Positions 2,750 through 52,724 of a DNA stretch of 64,000 nt are shown one piece after another (position 1 is the stretch's first letter; the number at the start of each line of letters is the position of its first letter). The stretch is from positions 5,685 to 69,684 of the forward strand of contig CAYFQT010000026.1 in NCBI GenBank assembly GCA_964345445.1, read 5' to 3'. Under the pieces are notes generated by a model that was not told the DNA's origin, made no database searches, and saw nothing but the letters and a program-made list of their open reading frames with translations. This stretch comes from an uncultured Candidatus Saccharibacteria bacterium (GTDB taxonomy: Bacteria; Patescibacteriota; CPR2_A; CAYFQT01). The translations under genes and the position numbers were made by a program.

Positions 2750-2787
2750 TACTGGAAAAAATTTTCAATTTTTTTTCAACCCGCCGT

Positions 2788-2871
2788 GCCCTGGTGCTGA
2801 AACTGGTAGACAGGCGTGGTTCAGGACCACGTGCTCAAAAGAGCGTGAGAGTTCGAATCTCTCCCAGGGCA
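2788..2871 (+). tRNA. tRNA-Leu (anticodon CAG), type II with long variable arm
   Basis: Acceptor GCCCTGG/CCAGGGC with discriminator A. Anticodon loop ttCAGga, long variable arm, T-loop TTCGAAT. Confidence 0.8.
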
Positions 2872-2921
2872 TTTTGCCAAATGAAGCCAAAATAGTATAA
2901 TTGAACTAGTTCATTCAATTA

Positions 2922-3005
2922 GCCCCCGTGGCGGAACTGGCATACGCGACAGGTTGAGGGCCTGTGTCCTTTTAGGACGTACTGGTTCAAATCCAGTCGG
3001 GGGCA
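2922..3005 (+). tRNA. tRNA-Leu (anticodon GAG), type II
   Basis: Acceptor GCCCCCG/CGGGGGC with discriminator A. Anticodon loop ttGAGgg, variable-arm hairpin gtcct-ttt-aggac, T-loop TTCAAAT. Confidence 0.7.
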
Positions 3006-3043
3006 CTGCGTTAGAAGAAACCCTTCAATTATTTTATCTTTAA

Positions 3044-3117
3044 GGGTGCTTAGCTCAGTTGGTTAGAGTGACTGGTTTACATCCAGTAGGTCGGGGGTTC
3101 GAATCCCTCAGCACCCA
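3044..3117 (+). tRNA. tRNA-Val (anticodon TAC)
   Basis: GGGTGCTTAGCTCAGTTGG...cloverleaf. Anticodon loop ttTACat, T-arm GGGGGTTCGAATCCCTC, acceptor GGGTGCT/AGCACCC. Confidence 0.85.
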
Positions 3118-3137
3118 CGTCGAAACAAAATTTAAGC

Positions 3138-3165
3138 TTTCGCCCCGAAAGCTTTCGGGGCGAAA
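3138..3165. terminator. Perfect 28-nt palindrome (12-bp GC-rich stem, AGCT loop) between tRNA-Val and tRNA-Phe. Hairpin, possibly a terminator or processing site.
   Basis: TTTCGCCCCGAAAGCTTTCGGGGCGAAA equals its own reverse complement. Confidence 0.5.
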
Positions 3166-3186
3166 ATGAAAGGTTTGTTTGGACGC

Positions 3187-3262
3187 GCCGAGGTAGCTCA
3201 GGTAGTAGAGCACAGGTCTGAAAAACCTGGTGTCCCCAGTGCAAGTCTGGGCCTCGGCACCA
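3187..3262 (+). tRNA. tRNA-Phe (anticodon GAA), with encoded CCA
   Basis: Acceptor GCCGAGG/CCTCGGC + A + CCA. D-arm TAGCTCAGGTAGTAGAGC, anticodon loop ctGAAaa. The T-loop tgcaagt is atypical (G at position 55). Confidence 0.75.
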
Positions 3263-3562
3263 CGTCGAAGTTATTCCACTATACATCCTGCTTCAGCAGG
3301 CTGCACCGCTCCATAAACTTCTCCTCTTTCTACAAAATACTAAAGTATTTTGTCGAGTTGAAAAAATTCTAAAGAATTTTTGCGAAAAAGGAGCATTGCT
3401 GAAGATGGAAACAAAATTTTTGAAGAAAATTTTGTGGAATCGGAGGTTGAAAATTTTACCCGTAAAAATTCTTCAGAATTTTTACGGAAAAGGAGAAGTA
3501 AAGCGAAAATTGGAATGATTTCTTAGGAAGAAATCATAAAAATGGCAGCTTTACTTCGACGT

Positions 3563-3635
3563 GCGGGTGTAGCTCAGTTGATAGAGCATCTGCTTGCCAT
3601 GCAGAAGGTCGTGGGTTTAAGTCCCATCACCCGCT
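3563..3635 (+). tRNA. tRNA-Gly (anticodon GCC)
   Basis: GCGGGTGTAGCTCAGTTGATAGAGC. Anticodon loop ttGCCat, discriminator U as expected for Gly. The overlapping ORF 3542-3817 translates the tRNA (AGVAQLIEH... artefact). Confidence 0.85.
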
Positions 3636-3817
3636 TCGTCGGAATAAACTTCCAGCTTTTGCGAATTTGTTTTACAAATTTGCTACCACTTTCAGTTTAT
3701 TCCTCCTCTTTCGCAAAAAATCTGACGATTTTTTGCAAGACAAAAACATTAGGTGACCTATTTTTCCTGTTTATAAGCGGGGCAGGGTCCGCGGTCTGCC
3801 TGCCCGCCAAAGCCTAG

Positions 3818-3889
3818 GGCCTCGTGACCGAGTGGTTTAGGTAGCGGTCTGCAAAACCGCGTACGGCGGTTCAAATCCGCCCGAGGCCT
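3818..3889 (+). tRNA. tRNA-Cys (anticodon GCA)
   Basis: Acceptor GGCCTCG/CGAGGCC with discriminator U (Cys-typical). Anticodon loop ctGCAaa, T-arm GGCGGTTCAAATCCGCC. Confidence 0.8.
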
Positions 3890-3894
3890 CTGAC

Positions 3895-3990
3895 ACTGGC
3901 AGGCGGGCCTGCCCGCTAATGCAAGCATAGCGTTGCAGGCGGGCAAAACCGAGTACAGCATGCGAATCCGCTCCAGGCCTCCGTAATTAA
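3895..3990 (+). pseudogene. Degenerate tRNA-Cys-like 3' half (tRNA remnant) fused to a GC-rich dispersed motif
   Basis: gcaaaaccgagtacagcatgcgaatccgctccaggcctcc is about 70% identical to the 3' half of the upstream tRNA-Cys but does not form a cloverleaf. Confidence 0.4.
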
Positions 3991-4019
3991 CTCATCTAAG
4001 GCATAATCAGAAAAAATAA

Positions 4020-4103
4020 GGGCGAGTGGCGGAATTGGTATACGCGCGACACTTAAAATGTCGTCCTGTTTACAGGGTGAGGGTTCGAGTCCCTCCTTGC
4101 CCA
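4020..4103 (+). tRNA. tRNA-Leu (anticodon TAA), type II
   Basis: Acceptor GGGCGAG/CTTGCCC with discriminator A. Anticodon stem CGACA/TGTCG with loop ctTAAaa, long variable arm, T-arm GAGGGTTCGAGTCCCTC. Confidence 0.8.
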
Positions 4104-4368
4104 CGTCCAAATAAACTTTCAGTTTTCGCGATCTCACAAAGTGAAATCGCTGTCACTTACAGTTTATTCCTCCTCTTTCTTCAAAATACTAAAGTATTTT
4201 GACGAGTAAATATAATACTTCCGACTTTCATGATTTTGTAGAACAAAATCGTTCTTTTTTAAAAAATCCTTGATTTTTTGATTTATAAGACTTAAAATAA
4301 AATATCTATAAAGAACATTTACAATTAAATACAAGACGAAAATCAAAATTTTAAAGGAGTGATAGTTA

Positions 4369-6345: not shown

Positions 6346-6400
6346 AGAGATAAGAGATAGGGGATAGGAATTAGTAAAAATAAGACTTATAACTCATAAC

Positions 6401-6432
6401 CCATAACTTCTGCCAGAGGCTGATCCGCCTCT
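6401..6432 (+). terminator. Rho-independent terminator-like hairpin after the phosphoesterase gene
   Basis: TCTGCCAGAGGC-tgatcc-GCCTCTGGCAGA, a 12-bp GC-rich stem followed by an A/T-rich run. Confidence 0.5.
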
Positions 6433-6464
6433 GGCAGAAATAACTAATAACTAAGGAGTGACAT

Positions 6465-9242: not shown

Positions 9243-10733
9243 ATGCCCGAAAATGAAAATCAAAAATTATCCTCAGATCAAAAAAATATTGAAAAAACAG
9301 ACGCTGAGTGGCATATTAAAACAATAGTTCCTCCTGCGCACCTGATTAGAAAGTCTAAAATTTTAGCAGCCAGAAAAGATAGATTTTTCCGAAAAATTGC
9401 ACTTATTTTTCTTATATTTTTTTTACTTATAGCAGGTGGGGTGGCAGCAGCTACTATTGTAGAAGGTGATTTTTATTGGGCAAGAGACCTTTTGGGTTTA
9501 GGTTTGCCCAGAGATCCAGGGGAGGCTATAGAAAAGATTTATACCCAGATGGATAAACTAGAGGCAGTACATACCGAAATGGATATGGATTTGCTTTTAT
9601 CATCTGAAGGAATAAATATAAAAATTCCTATTGAGGCCTATGGCGATACTGTTTTTCCTGATAAACAAAGAGTAAAATTGACTGTTGATACAAAATTTTT
9701 AGTTTCTGCCTTAGGTTCACTTTTGCCTTCTGATATAGCTTCTGATTTAAAAGAAATAAAAATTGAATATATTACAGATGGTGAAGGTATTTATTATAAA
9801 ATTCCCCAAATTTTTGGGGAATTATGGATAGAAGATACCTATCAGCAGTTTTCTTCTGGTACTTCAAATTTTGAAGATTTTTCAGACTCTCAAGAAAATT
9901 TCCAAGAGGTAGAGAAATTACCATCAGAGACATTAAGCGGAGTAAGATGTTATCATTATAAAATAACTTTTGATACTAAAAAATTTCTGGAAGATCTAAC
10001 TGATGAAGACCTGACTTATGAAGAAGCTAGTCTTTTAAATAATTTAAAAATCGGAGGGGAGATTTGGGCTTCTAAAAAAGATTTTTTAATCCAGAGAATG
10101 AATATAAATATGTCTTTTACTTTCCCTTCTGATGTTATTGAACAAATAGCTTCCATTTTTGAAAAACATTTTTCTAGTTTTGCTCCTTATTTGCATTTTG
10201 ATCAAGTTTTAGGTACCTCACAAGATAAAAAAATAGAAGCTTATAAAAATCAAGATAAAATTAACATTTCTTTAGAAATCGTATATTCTAATTTTAATAA
10301 ACCTATTAATATTAAAAAACCTCAGGAAACTAAGAAAATTACTGATATTTCAGAAAGTGATATCATAGATTCTCCTTTAGGTCATCTTCTAAGTAGTACA
10401 ATTAGTGAAAGCGAATCAAGCATTAATGATATTCAAAGAAAAAGTGATTTATATCAGATTGGAGCTGCTTTGGAATTATATGCCGATGATAATTCAAGTC
10501 AATATCCTGCATTTTCCGGAATTATTAAAATAGATGGAAGTGATGAATTGTCTCAAGTATTAATAGGAGATTACCTGCCTTCTATGCCTCGTGATCCTAA
10601 ATTCCCTGAATATTATTATGAATATTTTTCTGACGGGACCAGTTATGAACTTATTTGTATTTTAGAAGATGAAACTGATCCTGAAGGAGAAAGAGTAGGA
10701 GATAGGTATATTTATAAACTTATCTCTGAATAA
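9243..10733 (+). CDS. hypothetical membrane protein with type IV pilin/pseudopilin (GspG-like) C-terminal domain
   Basis: ATG at 9243 follows the htpX stop and is preferred over the overlapping start at 9159. The TM segment IALIFLIFFLLIAGGVAAATIV and the C-terminus DLYQIGAALELYADDNSSQYP...PRDPKFPEYYYEY resemble pseudopilin globular domains. Confidence 0.45.
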   Translation: MPENENQKLSSDQKNIEKTDAEWHIKTIVPPAHLIRKSKILAARKDRFFRKIALIFLIFFLLIAGGVAAATIVEGDFYWARDLLGLGLPRDPGEAIEKIYTQMDKLEAVHTEMDMDLLLSSEGINIKIPIEAYGDTVFPDKQRVKLTVDTKFLVSALGSLLPSDIASDLKEIKIEYITDGEGIYYKIPQIFGELWIEDTYQQFSSGTSNFEDFSDSQENFQEVEKLPSETLSGVRCYHYKITFDTKKFLEDLTDEDLTYEEASLLNNLKIGGEIWASKKDFLIQRMNINMSFTFPSDVIEQIASIFEKHFSSFAPYLHFDQVLGTSQDKKIEAYKNQDKINISLEIVYSNFNKPINIKKPQETKKITDISESDIIDSPLGHLLSSTISESESSINDIQRKSDLYQIGAALELYADDNSSQYPAFSGIIKIDGSDELSQVLIGDYLPSMPRDPKFPEYYYEYFSDGTSYELICILEDETDPEGERVGDRYIYKLISE

Positions 10734-14237: not shown

Positions 14238-14537
14238 ATGGCATTAACTAAGAAGCAAATTGAACATATTGCTATGTTGGCTCGTTTAGGTTTGACAGAA
14301 AAAGAAAAGAAGAGGTTTGAAAGACAACTTTCTTCTGTTTTGGACTATGTAAATCAACTTAATAAAGTAAATACAAAAAATGTCCAGCCAATTGCCCAAA
14401 TAACAGGACTTAAAAATGTAATGGAGGAGGATAAAGTAAAAAGTGATAAGGAGAAGATATCAAAAGATAAATTGTTGAAGAATGCGCCAATGCAGGAAGA
14501 AGGGTGTGTGAAAGTGAAAGCGGTATTAGAAGAGTAA
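14238..14537 (+). CDS. gatC: Asp/Glu-tRNA(Asn/Gln) amidotransferase subunit C
   Basis: MALTKKQIEHIAMLARLGLTEKEKKRFERQLSSVLDYVNQL is a canonical GatC N-terminus. Promoter-like TTGTCA-17-TATACT lies at 14152-14187. Confidence 0.85.
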   Translation: MALTKKQIEHIAMLARLGLTEKEKKRFERQLSSVLDYVNQLNKVNTKNVQPIAQITGLKNVMEEDKVKSDKEKISKDKLLKNAPMQEEGCVKVKAVLEE

Positions 14538-14596
14538 AGGTTACTATGAGTTACTAGAAGTTACTAATGGTTACTAAGAAAGTTACTAGAGGTTAT

Positions 14597-14992
14597 ATGC
14601 AAGAGGAAGCTTATAAAAAATTATTAGTTTGGAAAAATATTTGTGAGTTAAGAAGACTGATTTATAAAATAACTGAGAGATTTGCTAAGACTCATCCAAG
14701 ATTAGCTGGACAAATGAGAGACGCTACAAGATCAGCAAAACAGAATTTTATAGAAGGATATAAACGAGATTCAATTGGATTATTTATTCAATCTGTTAAA
14801 GTTAGCCGAGGCTCTTTAGGAGAATTGGATGGTGATATTGATGATTGTTATGAAGATAATTTAATTACAAAATTGGAGTATACTAATTTAAGTAATTTGA
14901 GTAAAAAATCTTTATACTTAATTGATAGATATATAGATTCGTTATATAAAATGCAAAAAGAAAAAACTTGGAGAGTAAGGTGGCAAAAATAA
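14597..14992 (+). CDS. four-helix-bundle protein (TIGR02436-like), inserted between gatC and gatA
   Basis: ...LLVWKNICELRRLIYKITERFAKTHPRLAGQMRDATRSAKQNFIEGY is characteristic of this family. ATG at 14597 has a better RBS (AGAGG) than the ORF-track start at 14567. Inverted heptamer arrays flank the gene. Confidence 0.65.
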   Translation: MQEEAYKKLLVWKNICELRRLIYKITERFAKTHPRLAGQMRDATRSAKQNFIEGYKRDSIGLFIQSVKVSRGSLGELDGDIDDCYEDNLITKLEYTNLSNLSKKSLYLIDRYIDSLYKMQKEKTWRVRWQK

Positions 14993-15059
14993 TTTTGCAA
15001 CCTTTAGTAACTTATAGCAACTATTAGCAACTATTAGTAACTTATATTTACTAATTAAA

Positions 15060-16646
15060 ATGAATTTAGAAAATCTTACAATTTTACAAGCTCATAAGAA
15101 GCTGAAAAATAAAGAGACTTCATCGGTTGAATTAACCAAAGCAGTTTTGGATAGAATTAAAAAGACTGATAATAAGATTAATGCTTTTATTACAGTCACA
15201 GAAAAAGAAGCATTAAAACAAGCAGAAGAGGCTGACAAACGGATTAAAACTGGAAAGATGCTGAGTAAACTTGATGGAATTCCAGTGGCTCTAAAAGACA
15301 ATATGGCAACAGAAGGAATTTTAACAACAGCTGGTTCTAAGATTTTAGAGAATTTTAAACCGCCTTATGATGCTACAGTTGTTAAAAAAATAAAAGATGC
15401 TGGTGCTATTATTATTGGCAAAACCAATATGGATGAGTTTGCCATGGGTTCTTCTTGTGAAACTTCTTATTTTGGTCCTACGAAAAATCCTTGGGATACA
15501 TCCCGAGTTCCTGGTGGCTCTTCAGGAGGTTCTGCAGCGGCTGTTTCAGCTTCACAATGCATTTATGCCCTGGGTTCTGATACCGGTGGTTCTATTCGCC
15601 AACCAGCCTCTTTTTGTGGTTGTGTAGGCTTAAAACCTACTTATGGTCGAGTATCTCGATATGGTCTTTTGGCTATGGCCTCTTCTTTGGATCAAATTGG
15701 ACCACTTGTAAAAAATACAGAAGATGCAGCAGCAGTTTTGGAGGCTATTTCTGGATATGATGGGGAAGATAGCACAAGCGTAGACAAAAAGTTCAAAGTT
15801 CAAAGTTCAAAGTTCAAAGTTTTAAAAAATGTAAAAATTGGGATTGCTAAGGAGTATTTTAGGGAAGGTTTAGATAAAAAAGTTGAAGATAAGATAAAAT
15901 CAGCGATTAAAGTTTTAGAGTCAAGGGGAGCCAAGATTGAAAATGTTAGCTTACCTCATACTCAATATACCTTAGCTTGCTATTATATAATTATGCCTTC
16001 AGAAGCTTCCACTAATTTAGCCAGATATGATGGAATAAAATATGGATATTCAACCACTCAAATCTCAAATCTCAACTCTCAAAACTTATTAGATGTCTAT
16101 CTACAATCAAGGGCAGAAGGTTTTGGAGATGAGGTAAAAAGGCGAATAATGTTAGGAACTCATACATTATCTTCAGGTTATTATGATCAATATTACTTAA
16201 AAGCTGCTAAAGTTAGAACAAAAATAAAAGAAGATTTTGACAAAGCATTTTCTAAAGTGGATGTTTTAATAACTCCTACTTCACCAACTGTTGCTTTTCC
16301 ACTCGGGGAAAAGTTAGATGATCCATTGACTATGTATTTATCGGATATTTATACAGTACCGGTTAATTTAGCCGGAGTGCCGGCAATTTCTGTTCCTTGT
16401 GGACTAGTTAAAAAGGTTACTAAAAGTTACCAAAAGGATACTAAAAAGTTACTAAAGAGAGTTGATAAAAATACTTTTAGTAACAATTTGCAACCCCTAG
16501 TAACCCCTAGTAGCTCATTATTACCTGTAGGTTTACAAATAATAGGTCCTCAGTGGGGAGAAGAGAAAATTCTACAAACAGCTTATATCTATGAACAGGC
16601 AACAAAAGATGAGGGGTGGAGGAAATTAAAGCCAAGTATAAAGTAA
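15060..16646 (+). CDS. gatA: Glu-tRNA(Gln) amidotransferase subunit A, with in-frame repeat insertions
   Basis: Amidase signature [11 protein letters not shown], plus [10 protein letters not shown] and the catalytic Ser/Lys context. Three low-complexity inserts are encoded by short DNA repeats. Confidence 0.9.
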
Positions 16647-16746
16647 TAGTAATAAGTAATAAGGAATCAAGAATAAAGGGTTAGGAATTAGGAATAGGGA
16701 ATAAGTAGTACTCCTTATAACTAATAACGGATAACTAGGAGCACAT

Positions 16747-17601
16747 ATGGGTAAAGCAGCCAGAATTAGAAGATTAAGAGAATTAGAAAGACAGCAAAAA
16801 GAAGTAGAAAAAAAGGATAAAAAACAATTGACATTAAGAATTGTATTTTTATCTCTGGCTTCTGTTGGTTTAATTGTTGGAATAATTATTATGGTTGTGA
16901 AAATTAATAAGATAAAAAAACAGCCTAAATCTTATAAGACAGGGGAGAGGACCTATTCTCAAGCGCCGGATATGCAAATTGATACCCAAAAAAAGTATAC
17001 AGCTACAATTGAAACATCTTTGGGGAATATCAAAATAGAATTGTTTACCCAAGAAACTCTTAAAACTGTAAATAATTTTGTAGTTTTGGCTCGGGATGGA
17101 TATTATGATGGGTTAAAATTTCATAGAATAATAAAAGATTTTATGATCCAGGGGGGGTGCCCAAAGGGTGACGGCACAGGAGATCCTGGATATAAATTTG
17201 AAGATGAGCCGATAACTGAAAACAGAGATTATACCCCGGGGATTGTAGCTATGGCTAATTCCGGTCCTAACACCAATGGCAGCCAATTCTTTATTATGCA
17301 TGGGGATAAATCTGGTGGGGGTTTACCTAAAAATTATGTGATTTTTGGTCAAGTTTTAGAAGGGATGGAAATAGTAGATCAAATTGCCAATGTAGAGACA
17401 GAGGATAATGGACAAGGGGAAGTATCTCGCCCAAAAGAGGGTGTTTTAATTAATAAAGTCACAATTTCCGAGGAAGAAGTTCAAGTAGCACCTTCAGAAT
17501 TTCCTGGACCAGAAGGCCAACCTATTGATATTCCAACAGAAGATTTACCAATAGAAAGCCAACCGATTGAGATGCCTGTAGAGGTTCCTCAAGGAGAATA
17601 A
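16747..17601 (+). CDS. cyclophilin-type peptidyl-prolyl cis-trans isomerase with N-terminal TM and acidic C-terminal tail
   Basis: FHRIIKDFMIQGG...GYKFEDE...MANSGPNTNGSQFFI is a classic cyclophilin core. Confidence 0.85.
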   Translation: MGKAARIRRLRELERQQKEVEKKDKKQLTLRIVFLSLASVGLIVGIIIMVVKINKIKKQPKSYKTGERTYSQAPDMQIDTQKKYTATIETSLGNIKIELFTQETLKTVNNFVVLARDGYYDGLKFHRIIKDFMIQGGCPKGDGTGDPGYKFEDEPITENRDYTPGIVAMANSGPNTNGSQFFIMHGDKSGGGLPKNYVIFGQVLEGMEIVDQIANVETEDNGQGEVSRPKEGVLINKVTISEEEVQVAPSEFPGPEGQPIDIPTEDLPIESQPIEMPVEVPQGE

Positions 17602-18598: not shown

Positions 18599-20131
18599 AT
18601 GGAATATCAGACAATAATTGGATTAGAAATCCATGTACAATTGAAGACAAAATCTAAAATGTTCTGCAGATGTGATAATTATTCAGTGGATGCCAAGCCA
18701 AATATTAATACCTGCCCAGTATGTATGGGAATGCCTGGAACTCTTCCAGTGATAAACCAGCAAGCTATAGAATGGGCAGAAAAGACCGCCTTGGCTTTAA
18801 ATTGTAAAATTTCCTCATTCACTAAATTTGATCGAAAAAGCTATTTCTATCCGGACTTACCCAAAGGATATCAGATATCCCAATATGATATGCCTTTAGC
18901 GGTAGGAGGATGGTTGGATATTGATGTGCCAGAGTCAAAAGTTCAAAGTTCAAAGTCTAAAGTCCAAAATAAGATGTATACTAGAAGAATTAAAATCACT
19001 AGGTTGCATATGGAAGAAGATGCAGCAAAGTTAATTCATTCCGTAAAGGGACGTGGTCCCTACGGGACTTTACGTCCAGAGGTGGCAGATTATAGTTTGG
19101 TTGATTTTAACCGTGCCGGAACTCCACTTATGGAAATTGTTACAGAACCTGACCTAAGCTCCCCACTTGAAGCAAAGATTTTTATGCAGGAGTTAAGAAG
19201 TATTTTGCGATATTTAGATGTTTCTGAAGCTGATATGGAGGAGGGAAATTTGAGATGTGATGCTAATATATCATTAAGTCCAAAGTCCAAAATCCAAAGT
19301 CCAAAGTTGGGGGAGAAGGTGGAAATTAAAAATATAAACTCTTTTAAGGCTGTAGAGAAAGCTTTAGCTTACGAAGTGGAAAGGCAAAAGGATATTTTAG
19401 AAAGTGGGGACAAGATAGTTCAAGAAACTAGAGGCTGGATGGAAGATAAAGGCAGAACAATCTCCCAGCGAGGCAAAGAAGAAGCAGAAGACTATCGTTA
19501 TTTTCCCGAACCAGACTTGCCACCATTGGAATTTGAAAAAAAACAAGTAAAAGAAATTCAATCGAAATTACCTGAATTGCCTAACCAGCGCCAAAGAAGA
19601 TTTGTTAAAGAATATGACCTGTCAATGTATGATGCTCAGGTTTTAACTTCTGAGAAAGAAACATCTGTCTTTTTTGAAGACACAGTTCAAAAAATATCCA
19701 AATTAAATCACGAAAAGGCCAAGAGGGCGTGCAACTGGATAACAACGGAATTGCAATATTTACTTAAGGATAAAGATATAGATATTAGCAAATGCAAAAT
19801 TAAACCAAAGGATTTAGCCGAGCTTATTGGATTAATTGACAAAGGAGAAATCTCAGGGAAAATAGCCAAAGATGTATTCGTAGAAATGTTTAATTCCGGA
19901 AAAGCCCCTTCGGAAATTGTGAGTAAAAAAGGATTAAGACAAGTTAGTGATGAAGGAGAATTAGAGAAAATTATAGATAAAATTATATCTCAAAATAAAC
20001 AAGCAGTTTCTGATTATAAAGAAGGAAAGGAAAATGCATTTAAGTTTTTAGTAGGGCAGACAATGGCTTCTACCCGCGGTCAAGCCAATCCTCAGATGGT
20101 TAATAAGATATTGAAGGAAAAATTGAAATAA
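18599..20131 (+). CDS. gatB: Asp/Glu-tRNA amidotransferase subunit B, with two in-frame repeat insertions
   Basis: MEYQTIIGLEIHVQLKTKSKMFC.C...GMPGTLP and DFNRAGTPLMEIVTEPD match GatB. It carries a C-terminal GatB/YqeY domain. Confidence 0.9.
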   Translation: MEYQTIIGLEIHVQLKTKSKMFCRCDNYSVDAKPNINTCPVCMGMPGTLPVINQQAIEWAEKTALALNCKISSFTKFDRKSYFYPDLPKGYQISQYDMPLAVGGWLDIDVPESKVQSSKSKVQNKMYTRRIKITRLHMEEDAAKLIHSVKGRGPYGTLRPEVADYSLVDFNRAGTPLMEIVTEPDLSSPLEAKIFMQELRSILRYLDVSEADMEEGNLRCDANISLSPKSKIQSPKLGEKVEIKNINSFKAVEKALAYEVERQKDILESGDKIVQETRGWMEDKGRTISQRGKEEAEDYRYFPEPDLPPLEFEKKQVKEIQSKLPELPNQRQRRFVKEYDLSMYDAQVLTSEKETSVFFEDTVQKISKLNHEKAKRACNWITTELQYLLKDKDIDISKCKIKPKDLAELIGLIDKGEISGKIAKDVFVEMFNSGKAPSEIVSKKGLRQVSDEGELEKIIDKIISQNKQAVSDYKEGKENAFKFLVGQTMASTRGQANPQMVNKILKEKLK

Positions 20132-20457
20132 TTCGAAGAATATTGAGAATTACTAATGAACAATTGCTAATTTCTAATCAAATCCCAATGACTAATAAAG
20201 AAACAAAATTCTAAATCCGAAATTCTAAATACTAAATCCTAAATCCCAACGGGATCCCTTCGGGACAATATCAAATGACCAAAATGCTACCACAGCCCCA
20301 CCCAACCACCCTTTTATTGTATAGATTATATAACAAAACAATATAAGTTTAGAACATTGGAAAATTTGAATTTTGAATTTATTTAGGATTTAGAAATTAG
20401 ATATTAGAAATTTTATAAGATAAGTTAATTGTGTTATATTAAAACCAAGGAAAAATA

Positions 20458-21099
20458 ATGCGAAGAAAAAGAAAAGCAAAAGTTACAATAGAAGAAGATG
20501 AAGAAGTTACAACGGGTTGGTCCAAAGTCCAGAAATATTTGGAAGAGAAGAATATCAATTCTTTTCTTTTAGCTGTTTTAGAAGCTGATAAATTATTAGC
20601 CAAGGCATTAAAAGATAAAGGTTATCCTGGCAAGACCACCCAGGAGAAGATTGGAGCAGCCAAGGAAAAATTTACCAATATCAATTTTCTTCTTGGTGCA
20701 AGAGATATACGAGATAAGATTATTAATAAAATAGATTATAATCTTTCTTCTTTGGATTTAGAAGATGCTATTTCTGCCTATAGGCAAGCCATAATTGATT
20801 TAGGAGAAGAATCAGAGAAATTACCTATTTCTGAAAGATTATTACTTCTTTTTCATTATTATTATCCTTCTAAAAAACAAGCACTTAAAAAAATTATTAT
20901 TTATATAGTTTTATTTTTTACAATAGTTTGGTTTTTGTCTCATACTTCACTAGGACAAAATATTGTTAATATTGTAGTAGGAGTAACCAATATTATTTTC
21001 AGTTGGGTTTTAGCAATAGTTTTGTTGGTTGTGGGAGTTATAATTACGGTGATTGCAAGTCTTTTGTATTTTGAGAAAAGAAGGAAGGAAAGAAGATGA
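20458..21099 (+). CDS. hypothetical membrane protein
   Basis: Charged N-terminus, then two to three TM segments (IIIYIVLFFTIVWFL..., IVLLVVGVIITVIASLLYF). Confidence 0.4.
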   Translation: MRRKRKAKVTIEEDEEVTTGWSKVQKYLEEKNINSFLLAVLEADKLLAKALKDKGYPGKTTQEKIGAAKEKFTNINFLLGARDIRDKIINKIDYNLSSLDLEDAISAYRQAIIDLGEESEKLPISERLLLLFHYYYPSKKQALKKIIIYIVLFFTIVWFLSHTSLGQNIVNIVVGVTNIIFSWVLAIVLLVVGVIITVIASLLYFEKRRKERR

Positions 21100-21258
21100 T
21101 GTAAAAATTCTAAATCCGAAATCCTAAACAATATCTAAATTCCAATGTTCAAAATTCTAAACATTATATTTGTTTTGGTCATTTGGATTTAGATATTAGG
21201 ATTTGTTTAGAAATTAGATATTAGAAATTAGGATTTTAATTTAAAGGGGTGAACAAAT

Positions 21259-39923: not shown

Positions 39924-40625
39924 ATGAGATTTAAGAAACTTTCCAGAAATTTTTATAATAGAAATACTTTAAGTATTGCTCAGGAGCTTTTGGGGAAATA
40001 TTTGGTAAGGCAAATAGGGCAGGAAGGTCAGGCAGGAAGGATTGTGGAGACAGAAGCCTATATTGGTCAGGATGATGATGCTTGTCACGCATCTCGTGGC
40101 AAGACAAGACGAAACGAAGTGATGTTTGGCTCTGCGGGCCATGCCTATGTTTATATGATTTATGGAATATATTGGTGTTTGAATATTGTAACAGAGAAAA
40201 AAAGATTTCCCGCTGCTGTTTTGATCCGTGCCTTAGAACCAGTAGAAAGTAGAAGGAATAGGGAATTAGAAATAAGTAATAAGGAATTAGTGATTAGGAA
40301 TAAGAAGCTTTTGAAAAATACGGGACAAGTAGGAATGAGTAGAATTAAGACAGATTCCATATTCCTTGGAACTAATACTTATACTCTCACTAATGGGCCA
40401 GGAAAGTTATGCCGGTGGATGAAAATTACCAAAGAATTAAATGGTGAAGATTTAGTAAATTCTGATAGATTATGGGTTGAAGATAGGAGAGAGAAAATTT
40501 TTAAAAAAGATATCATAAAAACCACCAGAGTAGGTGTTGACTATGCCCAAAATTCCAAAGGCCACCCCTGGCGGTTTTATATAAAGAACAGTCCTTTTGT
40601 TTCCAAAAAGATGAAATTTTTTTAA
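39924..40625 (+). CDS. mpg: DNA-3-methyladenine glycosylase (Mpg/AAG family) with an in-frame repeat-derived insertion
   Basis: IAQELLGKYLVR...GRIVETEAYIGQDD.ACHASRG.T.RN.VMFG.AGHAYVYMIYG...LN is canonical. An insert of about 35 aa precedes LTNGPGKLC. Confidence 0.8.
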   Translation: MRFKKLSRNFYNRNTLSIAQELLGKYLVRQIGQEGQAGRIVETEAYIGQDDDACHASRGKTRRNEVMFGSAGHAYVYMIYGIYWCLNIVTEKKRFPAAVLIRALEPVESRRNRELEISNKELVIRNKKLLKNTGQVGMSRIKTDSIFLGTNTYTLTNGPGKLCRWMKITKELNGEDLVNSDRLWVEDRREKIFKKDIIKTTRVGVDYAQNSKGHPWRFYIKNSPFVSKKMKFF

Positions 40626-41036
40626 AGAATATTTACCGATTTCTTAAATCATAGTAGTATTTTCAGTAAATATTTTTATAACGCTTTTCTGGCGACCGTC
40701 CCGATTTTCATCATTAAAGTTTGTAAATAAAAGTAATCGAGGATCCTGACTTCCTTAAATTAAAAAGTATAAAGTCGGGACAATATATTTTTGTAATTTT
40801 AAATACCCCACTTTTCATGCCATGGCAAAATAGTTTGGTAAATTCTCATATTTCACTTTTTAAGCCATGGCACAATAGTGTTATATAGAAAACATATAAA
40901 AAAAGACCGAAGCTGTGAATATATAATAAATAACTTCGGTCCCCAACCTCTCCTGCATATTATAATCAATAATAAGTGCGGGGGATTTTTCATATAGAAG
41001 AGGTTGGGGTTTGTTCGGAATAAGATCACTTCTGTT

Positions 41037-49506: not shown

Positions 49507-49596
49507 GCGGGCGTGGCGGAATTTGGAAGACGCGCGTGGCTTAGGACCACGTTCCCATTTATGGGATTGGAGGTTCAAGTCCTCCCGCCCGCACCA
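49507..49596 (+). tRNA. tRNA-Leu (anticodon TAG), type II, with encoded CCA
   Basis: Acceptor GCGGGCG/CGCCCGC + A + CCA. Anticodon stem CGTGG/CCACG with loop ctTAGga, variable hairpin CCCAT-tt-ATGGG, T-loop TTCAAGT. Confidence 0.85.
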
Positions 49597-49644
49597 TTGG
49601 GATACCCAAAAGGCATAGAGGTTCAAATCCTCTCACCGGCACCA
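49597..49644 (+). other. tRNA 3' fragment (variable-arm hairpin + T-arm + acceptor 3' strand + CCA) abutting tRNA-Leu
   Basis: TTGGG-ata-CCCAA, then AGAGGTTCAAATCCTCT, then CACCGGC-A-CCA. No matching 5' acceptor strand was found. A terminator hairpin GACC..GGTC + T7 follows at 49663-49686. Confidence 0.4.
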
Positions 49645-49727
49645 TAAAAATATAATTTAAAATGACCTAAGCGGTCTTTTTTTATTCCTAAAATCCTTGA
49701 CAAATAACCTATTTTAGGATATAATTA

Positions 49728-49867
49728 AGTAATTACATTTGAAAATATAATCAAAGATTACTTAATTACGCTTAAGCTGTGCGAAAGCACTAATTAGATA
49801 ATTACATTTGAAAATATAATCAAAAATTACTTAATTACGCTGGATTAAAATGTAAGCACTAATTGGG
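49728..49867. repeat. tandem direct repeat of about 70 bp (2 copies) containing TAATTAC/GTAATTA motifs
   Basis: TAATTACATTTGAAAATATAATCAAAGATTACTTAATTACGC...AGCACTAATT recurs at 49800 with one mismatch in the first 42 bp. Confidence 0.7.
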
Positions 49868-50035
49868 TAATTAAGTTCAAATTGTTCAATCGCTCGTTTC
49901 ACTTGTTGTTCAAAATGTTAACCAATAACATCAGCGCAAATCCGCGGCATAAAAATCCGCGTAAATCAGCTTTTTGTAATATCAGCGTAATCTGTGTTAT
50001 ACAAAAATAAACATCAAAAATAAAGGAAAAACAAA

Positions 50036-52396: not shown

Positions 52397-52724
52397 TGAC
52401 CAATTACTAATTCTTAATCAAATCCTAATGATAAATAAAAATGTCAAATGACTAATTTTAAAATACCAAATAAAATCCAAATGGCTAATGACAAAATATT
52501 TAGAAATTTAATAATTTATTTATTGATTTGGCATTTGGATTTTGATATTAGACATTAATTAGACTTACTTTGACTTGCCGAAGGCGAGGCAGGCATTAGG
52601 TCAACCTGTGACTAATGCAAGCATAGTGTTGCAGGCGGGTTAGAAATTAGAAATTTTACATATATGCTATCAATTATTATTTGTATAAAGTTTAGCGTTA
52701 TTTTGTGTTTAAAAGGAGGGAGAT

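Follow-up and report, generated by a model that had tools for sequence, protein, structure and literature searches.

How does the same short repetitive sequence come to be present both in a noncoding spacer and inside the coding region of a conserved DNA repair enzyme? This question is raised by the mpg gene, which encodes a 3-methyladenine (methylpurine) DNA glycosylase, in a stretch of 64,000 nucleotides (hereafter the window; ~32% GC) from contig CAYFQT010000026.1 of an uncultured Candidatus Saccharibacteria bacterium (Patescibacteriota). An initial annotation had proposed that a short-repeat element of ~70 bp (40243–40312), also present in the spacer between gatA and a peptidyl-prolyl isomerase (PPIase) gene, was inserted in frame into mpg. 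Here, we describe this segment as a degenerate tandem array of 7-nt units. It is probably a slippage-driven heptanucleotide array of the microsatellite type, which belongs to a lineage-wide population of such arrays, was filtered by the reading frame, and is tolerated in a permissive loop of the enzyme.

The mpg gene carries an in-frame heptanucleotide array

The mpg gene (39924–40625, + strand) is an intact open reading frame (ORF) with a product of 233 aa. Over residues 9–224, this product matches the complete profile of PF02245 (Pur_DNA_glyco; positions 1–181 of 181, E 1e-65, 221 bits), and all 44 invariant columns of the family, including the ETEAY motif, are kept in an alignment of 20 orthologs (alignment A1). 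Human AAG structures match the window Mpg at E 1.5e-32, as two blocks on either side of an insert. Around the insert, the ORF reads ...ALEPVESRRNRELEISNKELVIRNKKLL...LTNGPGKLC. The segment quoted in the initial annotation corresponds to positions 40255–40304, is translated as SRRNRELEISNKELVIRNKK, and lies between ALEPVE and LTNGPGKLC; as had been stated, it separates the conserved ALEP and TNGPGKL blocks of the glycosylase.

The core of the insert (40253–40304, + strand) contains the at least 3 head-to-tail 7-nt copies expected of a tandem array (AAGGAAT, AGGGAAT, TAGAAAT, AAGTAAT, AAGGAAT, TAGTGAT, and TAGGAAT), which encode in frame the peptide NRELEIS/NKELVIR. Tandem Repeats Finder reported a period of 7 with 7.4 copies (71% matches) and a stronger period of 21 with 2.5 copies (80% matches). 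The array is not confined to the ~70 bp first delimited; the 7-nt register spans the whole variable loop of Mpg (40239–40394, + strand; P106–N157, between ALE and GPGKL), which is ~44 aa longer than that of the closest syntenic relative. Within the loop, TAGGAAT returns in phase at unit 14 and is followed by the inverted pair ATTCCAT ATTCCTT, and the period-7 autocorrelation of the loop (0.47) was matched by 0 of 2,000 shuffles at any period from 4 to 12. The array starts within the native codons CCA GTA GAA with a duplication of AGTAGAA, and the only duplication at its borders is the heptamer itself.

In an AlphaFold2 model of Mpg, the core has a predicted local distance difference test (pLDDT) score above 90 and the insert one of 44–75; the insert is modeled as one long helix (residues 110–133, pLDDT 61–75) followed by a disordered stretch. 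Since the invariant residues are all kept and the core is predicted with confidence, the mpg gene is most likely functional, with the insert as a tolerated surface extension.

The same unit family is present in the gatA–PPIase spacer

The spacer array (16641–16712, + strand) begins at the gatA stop codon and belongs to the unit family of the mpg array; its neighbors, by Pfam, are GatA (15060–16646) and a cyclophilin-type PPIase (16747–17601). The 17-mer AATAAGTAATAAGGAAT, which had been reported as shared, was recovered exactly at 16651–16667 and 40271–40287 and at no further site in the window even with 2 mismatches; 0.09 occurrences are expected by chance, and two matches were found in 0 of 100 shuffles. 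The 13-mer AGGAATAGGGAAT is also common to both loci (16690 and 40254), and the loci can be aligned with gaps over ~62 nt at ~76% identity (score 47, compared with a maximum of 39 over ~1,000 random windows). These three matches bear out the claim that one repeat family exists both as noncoding spacer and as translated insert. Tandem Repeats Finder assigned the spacer array a period of 7/35. A third member of the AAGGAAT/TAGGAAT family is intergenic (388–422, − strand), is located 3′ of a terminator-like hairpin, shares 12- to 14-mers with the mpg array, and can be aligned locally with it. Because both loci are built of one unit family (AAGGAAT/AAGTAAT/TAGGAAT), the 17-mer match is much less surprising than it appears, and the identity alone is no proof of copy-and-paste.

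Period-7 arrays are dispersed across the window

A scan of the window at periods 1–24 gave 9, 4, and 4 high-scoring runs at periods 7, 14, and 21, respectively, and 0–3 runs at the other periods, with ~0 in shuffles (0 at period 7). With a lower threshold, 26 period-7 runs were found compared with 2–5 in shuffles, and a strict window criterion gave 8 segments at period 7, 0–2 at other periods, and none in shuffles. The window contains many dispersed arrays, with period 7 in excess over the other periods and over chance. The word element for the mpg segment therefore had to be abandoned: it is one of ~25 arrays of several unit types, among them in-frame arrays in gatA and gatB, to which the initial annotation had not connected it. 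The units vary from array to array (AAGGAAT/AAGTAAT, AAAGTTC/AAAGTCC, AAATCCT/AAATTCT and the complement TTAGAAA, CTCAAAT, AATAACT, AAAATCA, and others); the units within any one array are alike, and the arrays do not share a non-repeat core. Most are located in spacers, often starting at a stop codon or a few bases away.

Half of the 8 clearest arrays are translated, in frame, in gatA and gatB (all on the + strand). The first gatA array (15788–15821) consists of 4.9 copies of AAAGTTC with 100% matches and lies in a linker of conserved length; the second (16057–16082; CTCAAAT, 3.7 copies) corresponds to a 5-aa insertion relative to Aquifex GatA. In gatB, AAAGTTC, AAAGTCT, and AAAGTCC units (18938–18968) are located inside a 14-aa insertion, and 4.6 copies of AAGTCCA (19276–19307) encode the peptide SPKSKIQSPK. 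Compared with solved GatA and GatB structures, the coding arrays occupy a linker or insertions of 3–14 residues. An exact 19-mer is common to gatA and gatB arrays (in gatB, the one at 18938–18968). Long identities between arrays are the rule in the window, which further weakens the 17-mer as evidence of a specific copying event. Rfam at gathering thresholds matched only tRNAs in the whole window; thus, no known RNA family covers the arrays.

Two further repeat regions were observed around gatA. The gatA C-terminal region (16400–16520) has a ~35-aa insertion made of period-10/11 repeats (AAAAGTTACT), an inverted copy, and two copies of AACCCCTAGT; this insertion is missing in the closest relative, unrelated inserts are present at the same point in other Patescibacteria, and its DNA fold was no better than those of shuffles. 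Between gatC and gatA (14535–15042), an ORF of the 23S rRNA-intervening-sequence protein family (PF05635, 14567–14992) is flanked by period-10 arrays (TAAAGGTTAC, 5.9 copies; TTAGCAACTA, 3.9 copies); the gatC–gatA gap of the relative is just 46 nt.

The reading frame of the coding arrays

In the segment 40243–40312, stop codons are absent from the true frame of mpg, whereas 5 and 6 are present in the two alternative sense frames. The AATAAG and AATTAG variants alternate in such a way that TAA and TAG stay out of the frame used. The identity of the mpg array is higher at period 21 (0.75) than at period 7 (0.66), an excess confined to this coding array. By comparison, the gatA–PPIase spacer array has 2–6 stop codons in each of the three sense frames. 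The units in gatA and gatB (AAAGTTC, CTCAAAT, and AAGTCCA) leave nearly all sense frames free of stops; only the first gatB array has a stop codon, in one of its frames. Read in antisense, these arrays are interrupted by stops, and AAGTCCA is the one unit that is open on both strands. Since the heptamer unit is not a multiple of 3, the gain or loss of one unit would shift the frame, as would be required of a phase-variable contingency locus, where unit changes switch a surface or variable gene between on and off alleles; however, the hosts of the arrays are essential housekeeping genes, and the mpg array is degenerate (71%). An intein, an intron, and translational bypass were also considered and rejected: the frame is continuous and free of stops, the insert is only ~130 nt long, and no splicing motifs were seen in it.

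We also considered that the segment might reflect no more than low sequence complexity and chance in AT-rich DNA, or an artifact of assembly. The low GC content of the window would favor such matches, and the frequency of 10-mers from the region was not discriminating in this AT-rich sequence (54 extra occurrences compared with a mean of 44 in random windows). However, not a single shuffle matched in the 17-mer, period-scan, autocorrelation, or strict-window tests, and the ORF is open in the true frame only. In addition, an identical mpg gene, the one other copy found, is present on a separately assembled Logan contig (L001), possibly from the same sample of origin, and orthologous arrays are found in a different assembly. 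We regard chance or artifact as extremely improbable, and the tests effectively refute it.

The Mpg loop and the array sites in relatives

The homologs of the window Mpg are from Patescibacteria/Parcubacteria. The 20-ortholog alignment has a single hypervariable region, located between ALE(P) and (T)NGPGKL. The canonical loop at this position has 22 aa (PxEGIxxMxxxR...NLTN), or 30 aa in some Firmicutes (54 loci with DNA). The Mpg of the closest syntenic genome (GCA_004196295.1; loci L002 and L084) is 63% identical to that of the window and has a loop of ~7 residues, a length also found in the homolog P0003 and in P0004, P0006, and P0008, the relatives that come next; between E105 and N157, the window loop has 51 residues. 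The loop of the nearest homolog, P0002 (66% identity), is a different one of 33 aa; in its DNA, the window differs from P0002 mainly by an extra 46-nt block, which is exactly the heptamer array. The insert is lineage-specific, a point on which the initial annotation holds, and the segment is not shared by Mpg orthologs; the other part of its claim, a discrete inserted element, was not sustained, as neither defined ends, nor a target duplication (not searched for systematically), nor a shared non-repeat core was found. Insertion into a conserved protein also overstates the disruption, because the site is a hypervariable loop that contains unrelated inserts in many Patescibacteria.

The same loop has been filled with repeat DNA in other lineages. 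All 5 non-canonical Patescibacteria loops for which DNA was available (the window, L003, L008, L020, and L023) had 7 as the best period, and in 4 of the 5 none of 2,000 shuffles matched; no canonical loop had 7 as its best period, apart from one marginal tie (L067). In 3 further loci (L085 6001–6813, L086 336–1037, and L087 789–1505), the Mpg loop contains in-frame GC-rich palindromes with no period 7 (z from −3.0 to −3.8), which encode peptides such as CHSEEVRRRISQNNLEILPFRQSQGQNDM. Repeat DNA has thus repeatedly landed or grown in the Mpg loop. When the Mpg alignment was run against the representative species of GTDB, no close relative was among the matches listed (best, 51% identity), and these matches served as the background set.

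Empty and filled sites can be compared at the spacer as well. The gatA–PPIase spacer has 46 nt and no array in the relative, compared with 106 nt in the window; thus, with the array-free mpg loop of the relative, both loci of the initial annotation are filled sites with empty counterparts. At other sites, the arrays are orthologous. In gatA of the relative (L084), the units AAAGTAC, AAAGTAA, AAAGTAT, and AAAGTAT occupy the same codons, at equal length, as the 5 AAAGTTC units of the window, and gatB of the relative has an orthologous array broken by a GC-rich hairpin that encodes TCLAGRQE. The amino-acid identity in this comparison is 73%–82%. Arrays can thus outlast ~20%–30% protein divergence while their units change together, and such a concerted change within an array is what would be expected of repeat turnover in place. 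In the relative (L084 14957–15520, compared with window 20129–20200), a 161-aa ORF is located between gatB and a 213-aa ORF, with a copy of a 16-nt direct repeat (AATTTGGAGAATATTA) on either side. In the window, this ORF is missing and the repeat sequence occurs once; either an insertion or a direct-repeat-mediated deletion accounts for the difference.

Alternatively, the array peptide, or the RNA or DNA repeat itself, could be a selected functional module, for example a heptad helix for protein contacts of Mpg, a binding site for a single-strand-binding protein of the cold-shock type, or a regulatory spacer hairpin. Three 7-nt units correspond to exactly seven residues, the mpg segment is predicted to be helical, and the gatA and gatB arrays are kept at orthologous sites across species. 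Spacer arrays are located directly at stop codons, as in other heptamer families (PMC4692102), and binding of CspB to heptamer repeats has been discussed (PMC4679880). On the other hand, a loop of ~7 residues suffices in close relatives, the inserts in the same Mpg loop are unrelated between lineages, the insert is modeled with low confidence, and the same units are present in noncoding DNA with stops in every sense frame. We consider a selected function improbable, and the array peptide would rather be selectively neutral.

Hairpins and composite arrays

The inverted units at the end of the mpg loop (ATTCCAT ATTCCTT, 40354–40367, + strand) are complementary to 40253–40266 at 13 of 14 positions and form a weak hairpin partner of the array. 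As RNA, the insert (40250–40385) folded with z = −1.97, and 5 of 200 shuffles were as good; as DNA, it folded no better than shuffles (z = −0.72). The predicted pairing in the mpg loop is suggestive only. By contrast, strong hairpins are predicted in the Mpg loops of the nearest homolog (P0002, locus L003; dG −28.2, z = −4.5) and of L023 (z = −3.55). Downstream of mpg (window ~40900–41015), we also noted a long hairpin (...CTTCGGTCCCCAACCTCTCCTGCATAT ... ATATAGAAGAGGTTGGGG) that is conserved in the relative (L002 ~10565–10680) and is probably a bidirectional terminator between convergent genes.

Clearer combinations of forward and inverted arrays are intergenic. A composite at 20205–20413 (+ strand) consists of a forward AAATYCT array (20205–20249), a core, and an inverted array (20381–20413), and ~170 nt of it are missing from the otherwise conserved spacer of the relative. 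A second copy at 21104–21237 (+ strand), with its forward and inverted arrays at 21109–21237, forms a long hairpin; the RNA fold of 21100–21240 has a dG of −31.5 (z = −3.7), which was reached by 0 of 200 shuffles. The two composites, 0.9 kb apart, flank the ORF 20458–21099 and share an exact 23-mer right arm (20390 and 21207) and a near-identical left arm, with different cores. Another forward and inverted pair is located at 52472–52543 (z = −3.15). Over the window, an inverted partner within 250 nt was found for 6 of 24 arrays and for 2 of 48 controls. On these counts, we rejected a general pairing of arrays with inverted partners; the hairpin architecture is a trait of a subset of arrays and not of the class. 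An array, a GC-rich hairpin, and another array follow one another in gatB of the relative, in the L020 mpg loop, and at window 6385–6460.

These structures raise a rival explanation, in which a mobile hairpin element with heptamer arrays as arms was transposed or converted in frame into mpg and into spacers, the tandem structure being a property of the element. The excess of inverted partners over controls argues for it, as do the composites with near-exact arms and different cores around the ORF 20458–21099, the strong hairpins in the Mpg loops of the nearest homolog and L023 and in the intergenic region 21100–21240, the in-frame GC-rich palindromes in the Mpg loops of other Patescibacteria, and the recurrent layout of array, GC-rich hairpin, and array. 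Against it, the window mpg hairpin is weak in both RNA and DNA folds, and inverted partners are lacking for most arrays, among them every array of gatA and gatB. Neither a full-length consensus nor termini nor a target duplication was seen (target duplications were not searched for systematically), the similarity between loci being at the level of units only, and no transposase was noticed in the window, where no search was aimed at transposases. A mobile element of this kind is less probable than slippage but a serious rival.

Hairpins and repeats were also observed at the tRNA genes of the window. In the region 3118–4168, a tRNA cluster (2787–4104) is interspersed with near-perfect hairpins of ~60 nt, located at 3495–3557, 3641–3703, and 4110–4168; the sequence common to the latter two (AATAAACTT.CAG...) points to a small family of repeated hairpins 3′ of tRNA genes. 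Directly 3′ of tRNA-Leu(tag) (49507–49596), the region 49597–49873 contains a sequence similar to a tRNA 3′ half (...GGTTCAAATCCTCTCACCGGCACCA), followed by 2.2 copies of a 69-nt tandem repeat (49722–49873); an integration site may have left this remnant.

Heptamer arrays beyond the window

In 1.25 Mb of sequence around mpg from 80 other species among the matches listed, 7 was the commonest short period (62 runs, compared with 7–33), and these period-7 runs were concentrated in Yanofskybacteria, Parcubacteria, and Nitrospira. Arrays of AGTTCTG and ACGTGAA units in Nitrospira/Nitrospirota (L046 2737–2815, L050 1750–1814, L052 9928–10106 and 11111–11211) form forward and inverted pairs 20–120 nt apart, the architecture of the intergenic composites of the window.

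Three consecutive copies of AAAGTTC were found in at least 120 contigs of JGI metagenomes. The 80 loci examined have a GC content of 33%–68%, and 43 of their 86 arrays are located in frames that stay open for 150 aa or more. The array-encoded peptide is of the VQSSKFK type in the ten longest such frames, six of which were checked by Pfam: UvrA, penicillin amidase, a P-type ATPase, PolX, a MurC-type ligase (on a 67% GC contig), and a GMC oxidoreductase. Among these loci (L088–L167; for example, L116 12315, L124 646, L156 8408, and L094 666), the AAAGTTC arrays of UvrA, the MurC-type ligase, PolX, the P-type ATPase, and penicillin amidase have sharp borders, are in frame, and come from unrelated metagenomes; they often lie beside other heptamer arrays (GAAGAGT, AATTACG, and CCGCAAT) or an inverted GAACTTT array. 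The presence of such AT-rich arrays within GC-rich genes is another point for the mobile hairpin element. In the IMG/VR viral collection, three copies of AAAGTTC were present in 32 loci, compared with 4, 8, and 14 for three composition-matched control heptamers, a modest preference that counts against it.

Comparison with known repeat families

Cyanobacterial heptamers are said to have been described by Mazel et al. in 1990 as short tandemly repeated repetitive (STRR) sequences, and Elhai et al. in 2008 reportedly found in Nostoc small dispersed repeats that form very short spacer hairpins and are associated with tandem heptamer tracts. According to the summaries of Mrazek et al. 2007 given in PMC4679880 and PMC4692102, heptanucleotides are the most abundant class of long simple sequence repeats (SSRs) in most prokaryotic genomes. 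In the account of PMC4679880, the proposed cause of the excess is polymerase slippage with a 7-nt footprint, and coding DNA favors units that are multiples of three. The authors of PMC4692102 state that there is no detailed literature on heptameric repeats, cite the heptanucleotides of Calothrix, and describe GGGNATC arrays within 50 bp of stop codons that are under-represented in ORFs.

The window arrays resemble the prokaryotic heptanucleotide long SSRs and STRR sequences in their head-to-tail units, their many dispersed arrays of several families per genome, their preference for spacers of co-directional genes, often at the stop codon, and the excess of period 7. They differ in their host, a Patescibacterium with ~32% GC, and in their A-rich units (AAGGAAT, AAAGTTC, and AAATCCT instead of CCCCAGT, GGGNATC, or TAACTGA); in addition, 4 of the 8 clearest arrays are translated in conserved enzymes, whereas heptamers are described as under-represented in coding DNA. 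They are not STRR sequences in the strict cyanobacterial sense, which refers to the units CCCCAGT, TTGGTCA, and CAACAGT of heterocystous cyanobacteria; the units here are others, and the homologs are from Patescibacteria/Parcubacteria. The TAACTGA repeats of Beggiatoaceae and cyanobacteria (PMC4679880) and the GGGNATC repeats of Xanthomonas and Nostoc (PMC4692102) are likewise tandem sets of 2–26 heptamers with an intergenic bias, located near start or stop codons and mixed with other heptamer arrays, and their translated forms are peptides with a period of 7 residues. Each of these two families has one dominant unit and a proposed RNA or G-quadruplex role, whereas the window arrays are built of many different units, lack G-tracts, and are read in frame within housekeeping genes. 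On every testable feature, the mpg array fits the heptanucleotide-SSR class.

Rickettsia palindromic elements (RPE; reviewed in PMC10969869) set the precedent for the rival mobile element, as they are ~100–150 bp of repeat DNA located in frame in unrelated housekeeping genes and in spacers, at positions compatible with the fold and in a reduced genome. In-frame insertion into unrelated conserved genes and into spacers is found here too, in mpg, gatA, and gatB, and in the metagenome contigs in UvrA, a MurC-type ligase, PolX, a P-type ATPase, and penicillin amidase. However, RPE have a family consensus of ~150 bp and a conserved peptide, whereas the window copies have only 7-nt units in common, with a weak hairpin in mpg and no consensus found. 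The full-length consensus with defined ends that characterizes RPE and MITEs is lacking in the window: the best alignment between loci covers 62 nt at the level of units, and the composite cores differ. The REP-doublet hairpin elements (REPINs; PMC3116915) similarly consist of very short repeats that form spacer hairpins, but require a REP-associated tyrosine transposase and a fixed palindrome of ~25 nt, neither of which was identified here, where no transposase search was made.

Origin and meaning of the arrays

We infer that slippage generated the arrays: slipped-strand mispairing, at replication or repair, would give rise to them and alter their length, and neighboring arrays would occasionally undergo conversion. 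In favor of this reading are the excess of period 7, the many unit types without a common core, the AGTAGAA duplication where the array starts, the lack of exactly the array block in P0002 and the empty sites of the relative, the concerted unit changes at orthologous codons of gatA and gatB, the frame properties, the period 7 of the non-canonical Mpg loops, and the published proposal of polymerase slippage. Spacers would accumulate them, and an array within a gene would survive only if its net length were a multiple of 3 (three units, or 21 nt, giving seven codons), if the order of unit variants avoided TAA and TAG in the frame used, and if the extra peptide fell in a permissive surface loop. 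For mpg, the ancestral loop of the clade would have been short; a hairpin-like heptamer insert may have arisen in the common ancestor of the window genome and P0002, and its forward arm would then have grown by ~46 nt in the window lineage. The outcome would be a solvent-exposed, probably helical extension of Mpg with a period of 7 residues and no required function.

Several observations weigh against this slippage origin. The long exact identities between loci (the 23-mer at 20390 and 21207, the 19-mer of gatA and gatB, and the 17-mer of the spacer and mpg) suggest copying from one locus to another in addition to independent local growth, and favor the mobile hairpin element. The AT-rich AAAGTTC arrays that lie in frame, with sharp borders, in contigs of 60%–67% GC are hard to derive locally, and the clear hairpin inserts of L003 and L023 are not predicted by simple slippage. 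Active slippage would show as length polymorphism between strains; a search of JGI metagenomes for such variants with the exact left flank of the mpg array gave 0 matches.

A broader proposition, which we put forward as unlikely, is that heptamer arrays, instead of being passive microsatellites, are self-propagating or enzymatically templated elements that cross phyla, often with the layout of array, hairpin, and array and with preferred units such as AAAGTTC, and that permissive loops of housekeeping enzymes (Mpg, GatA, GatB, UvrA, MurC, and PolX) receive them in frame whatever the GC content of the host. If true, this would be a general and unrecognized route of protein-loop evolution in Patescibacteria and beyond.

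Although known as the commonest long simple repeats in bacteria, heptanucleotide repeats have received very little study and are considered to avoid coding DNA. The present case shows that heptamer arrays are carried in frame by essential enzymes of a minimal genome, that the same Mpg loop has been filled by heptamer repeats independently in several Patescibacteria, and that orthologous codons retain arrays even as the units of these are replaced. Inserts with a period of 7 residues in Patescibacteria proteins, such as VQSSKFK and NRELEIS, can be recognized as repeat DNA, and a reading as functional domains is unnecessary. The orthologous filled and empty sites provide a tractable system in which to ask why the period is 7 and whether the arrays move.

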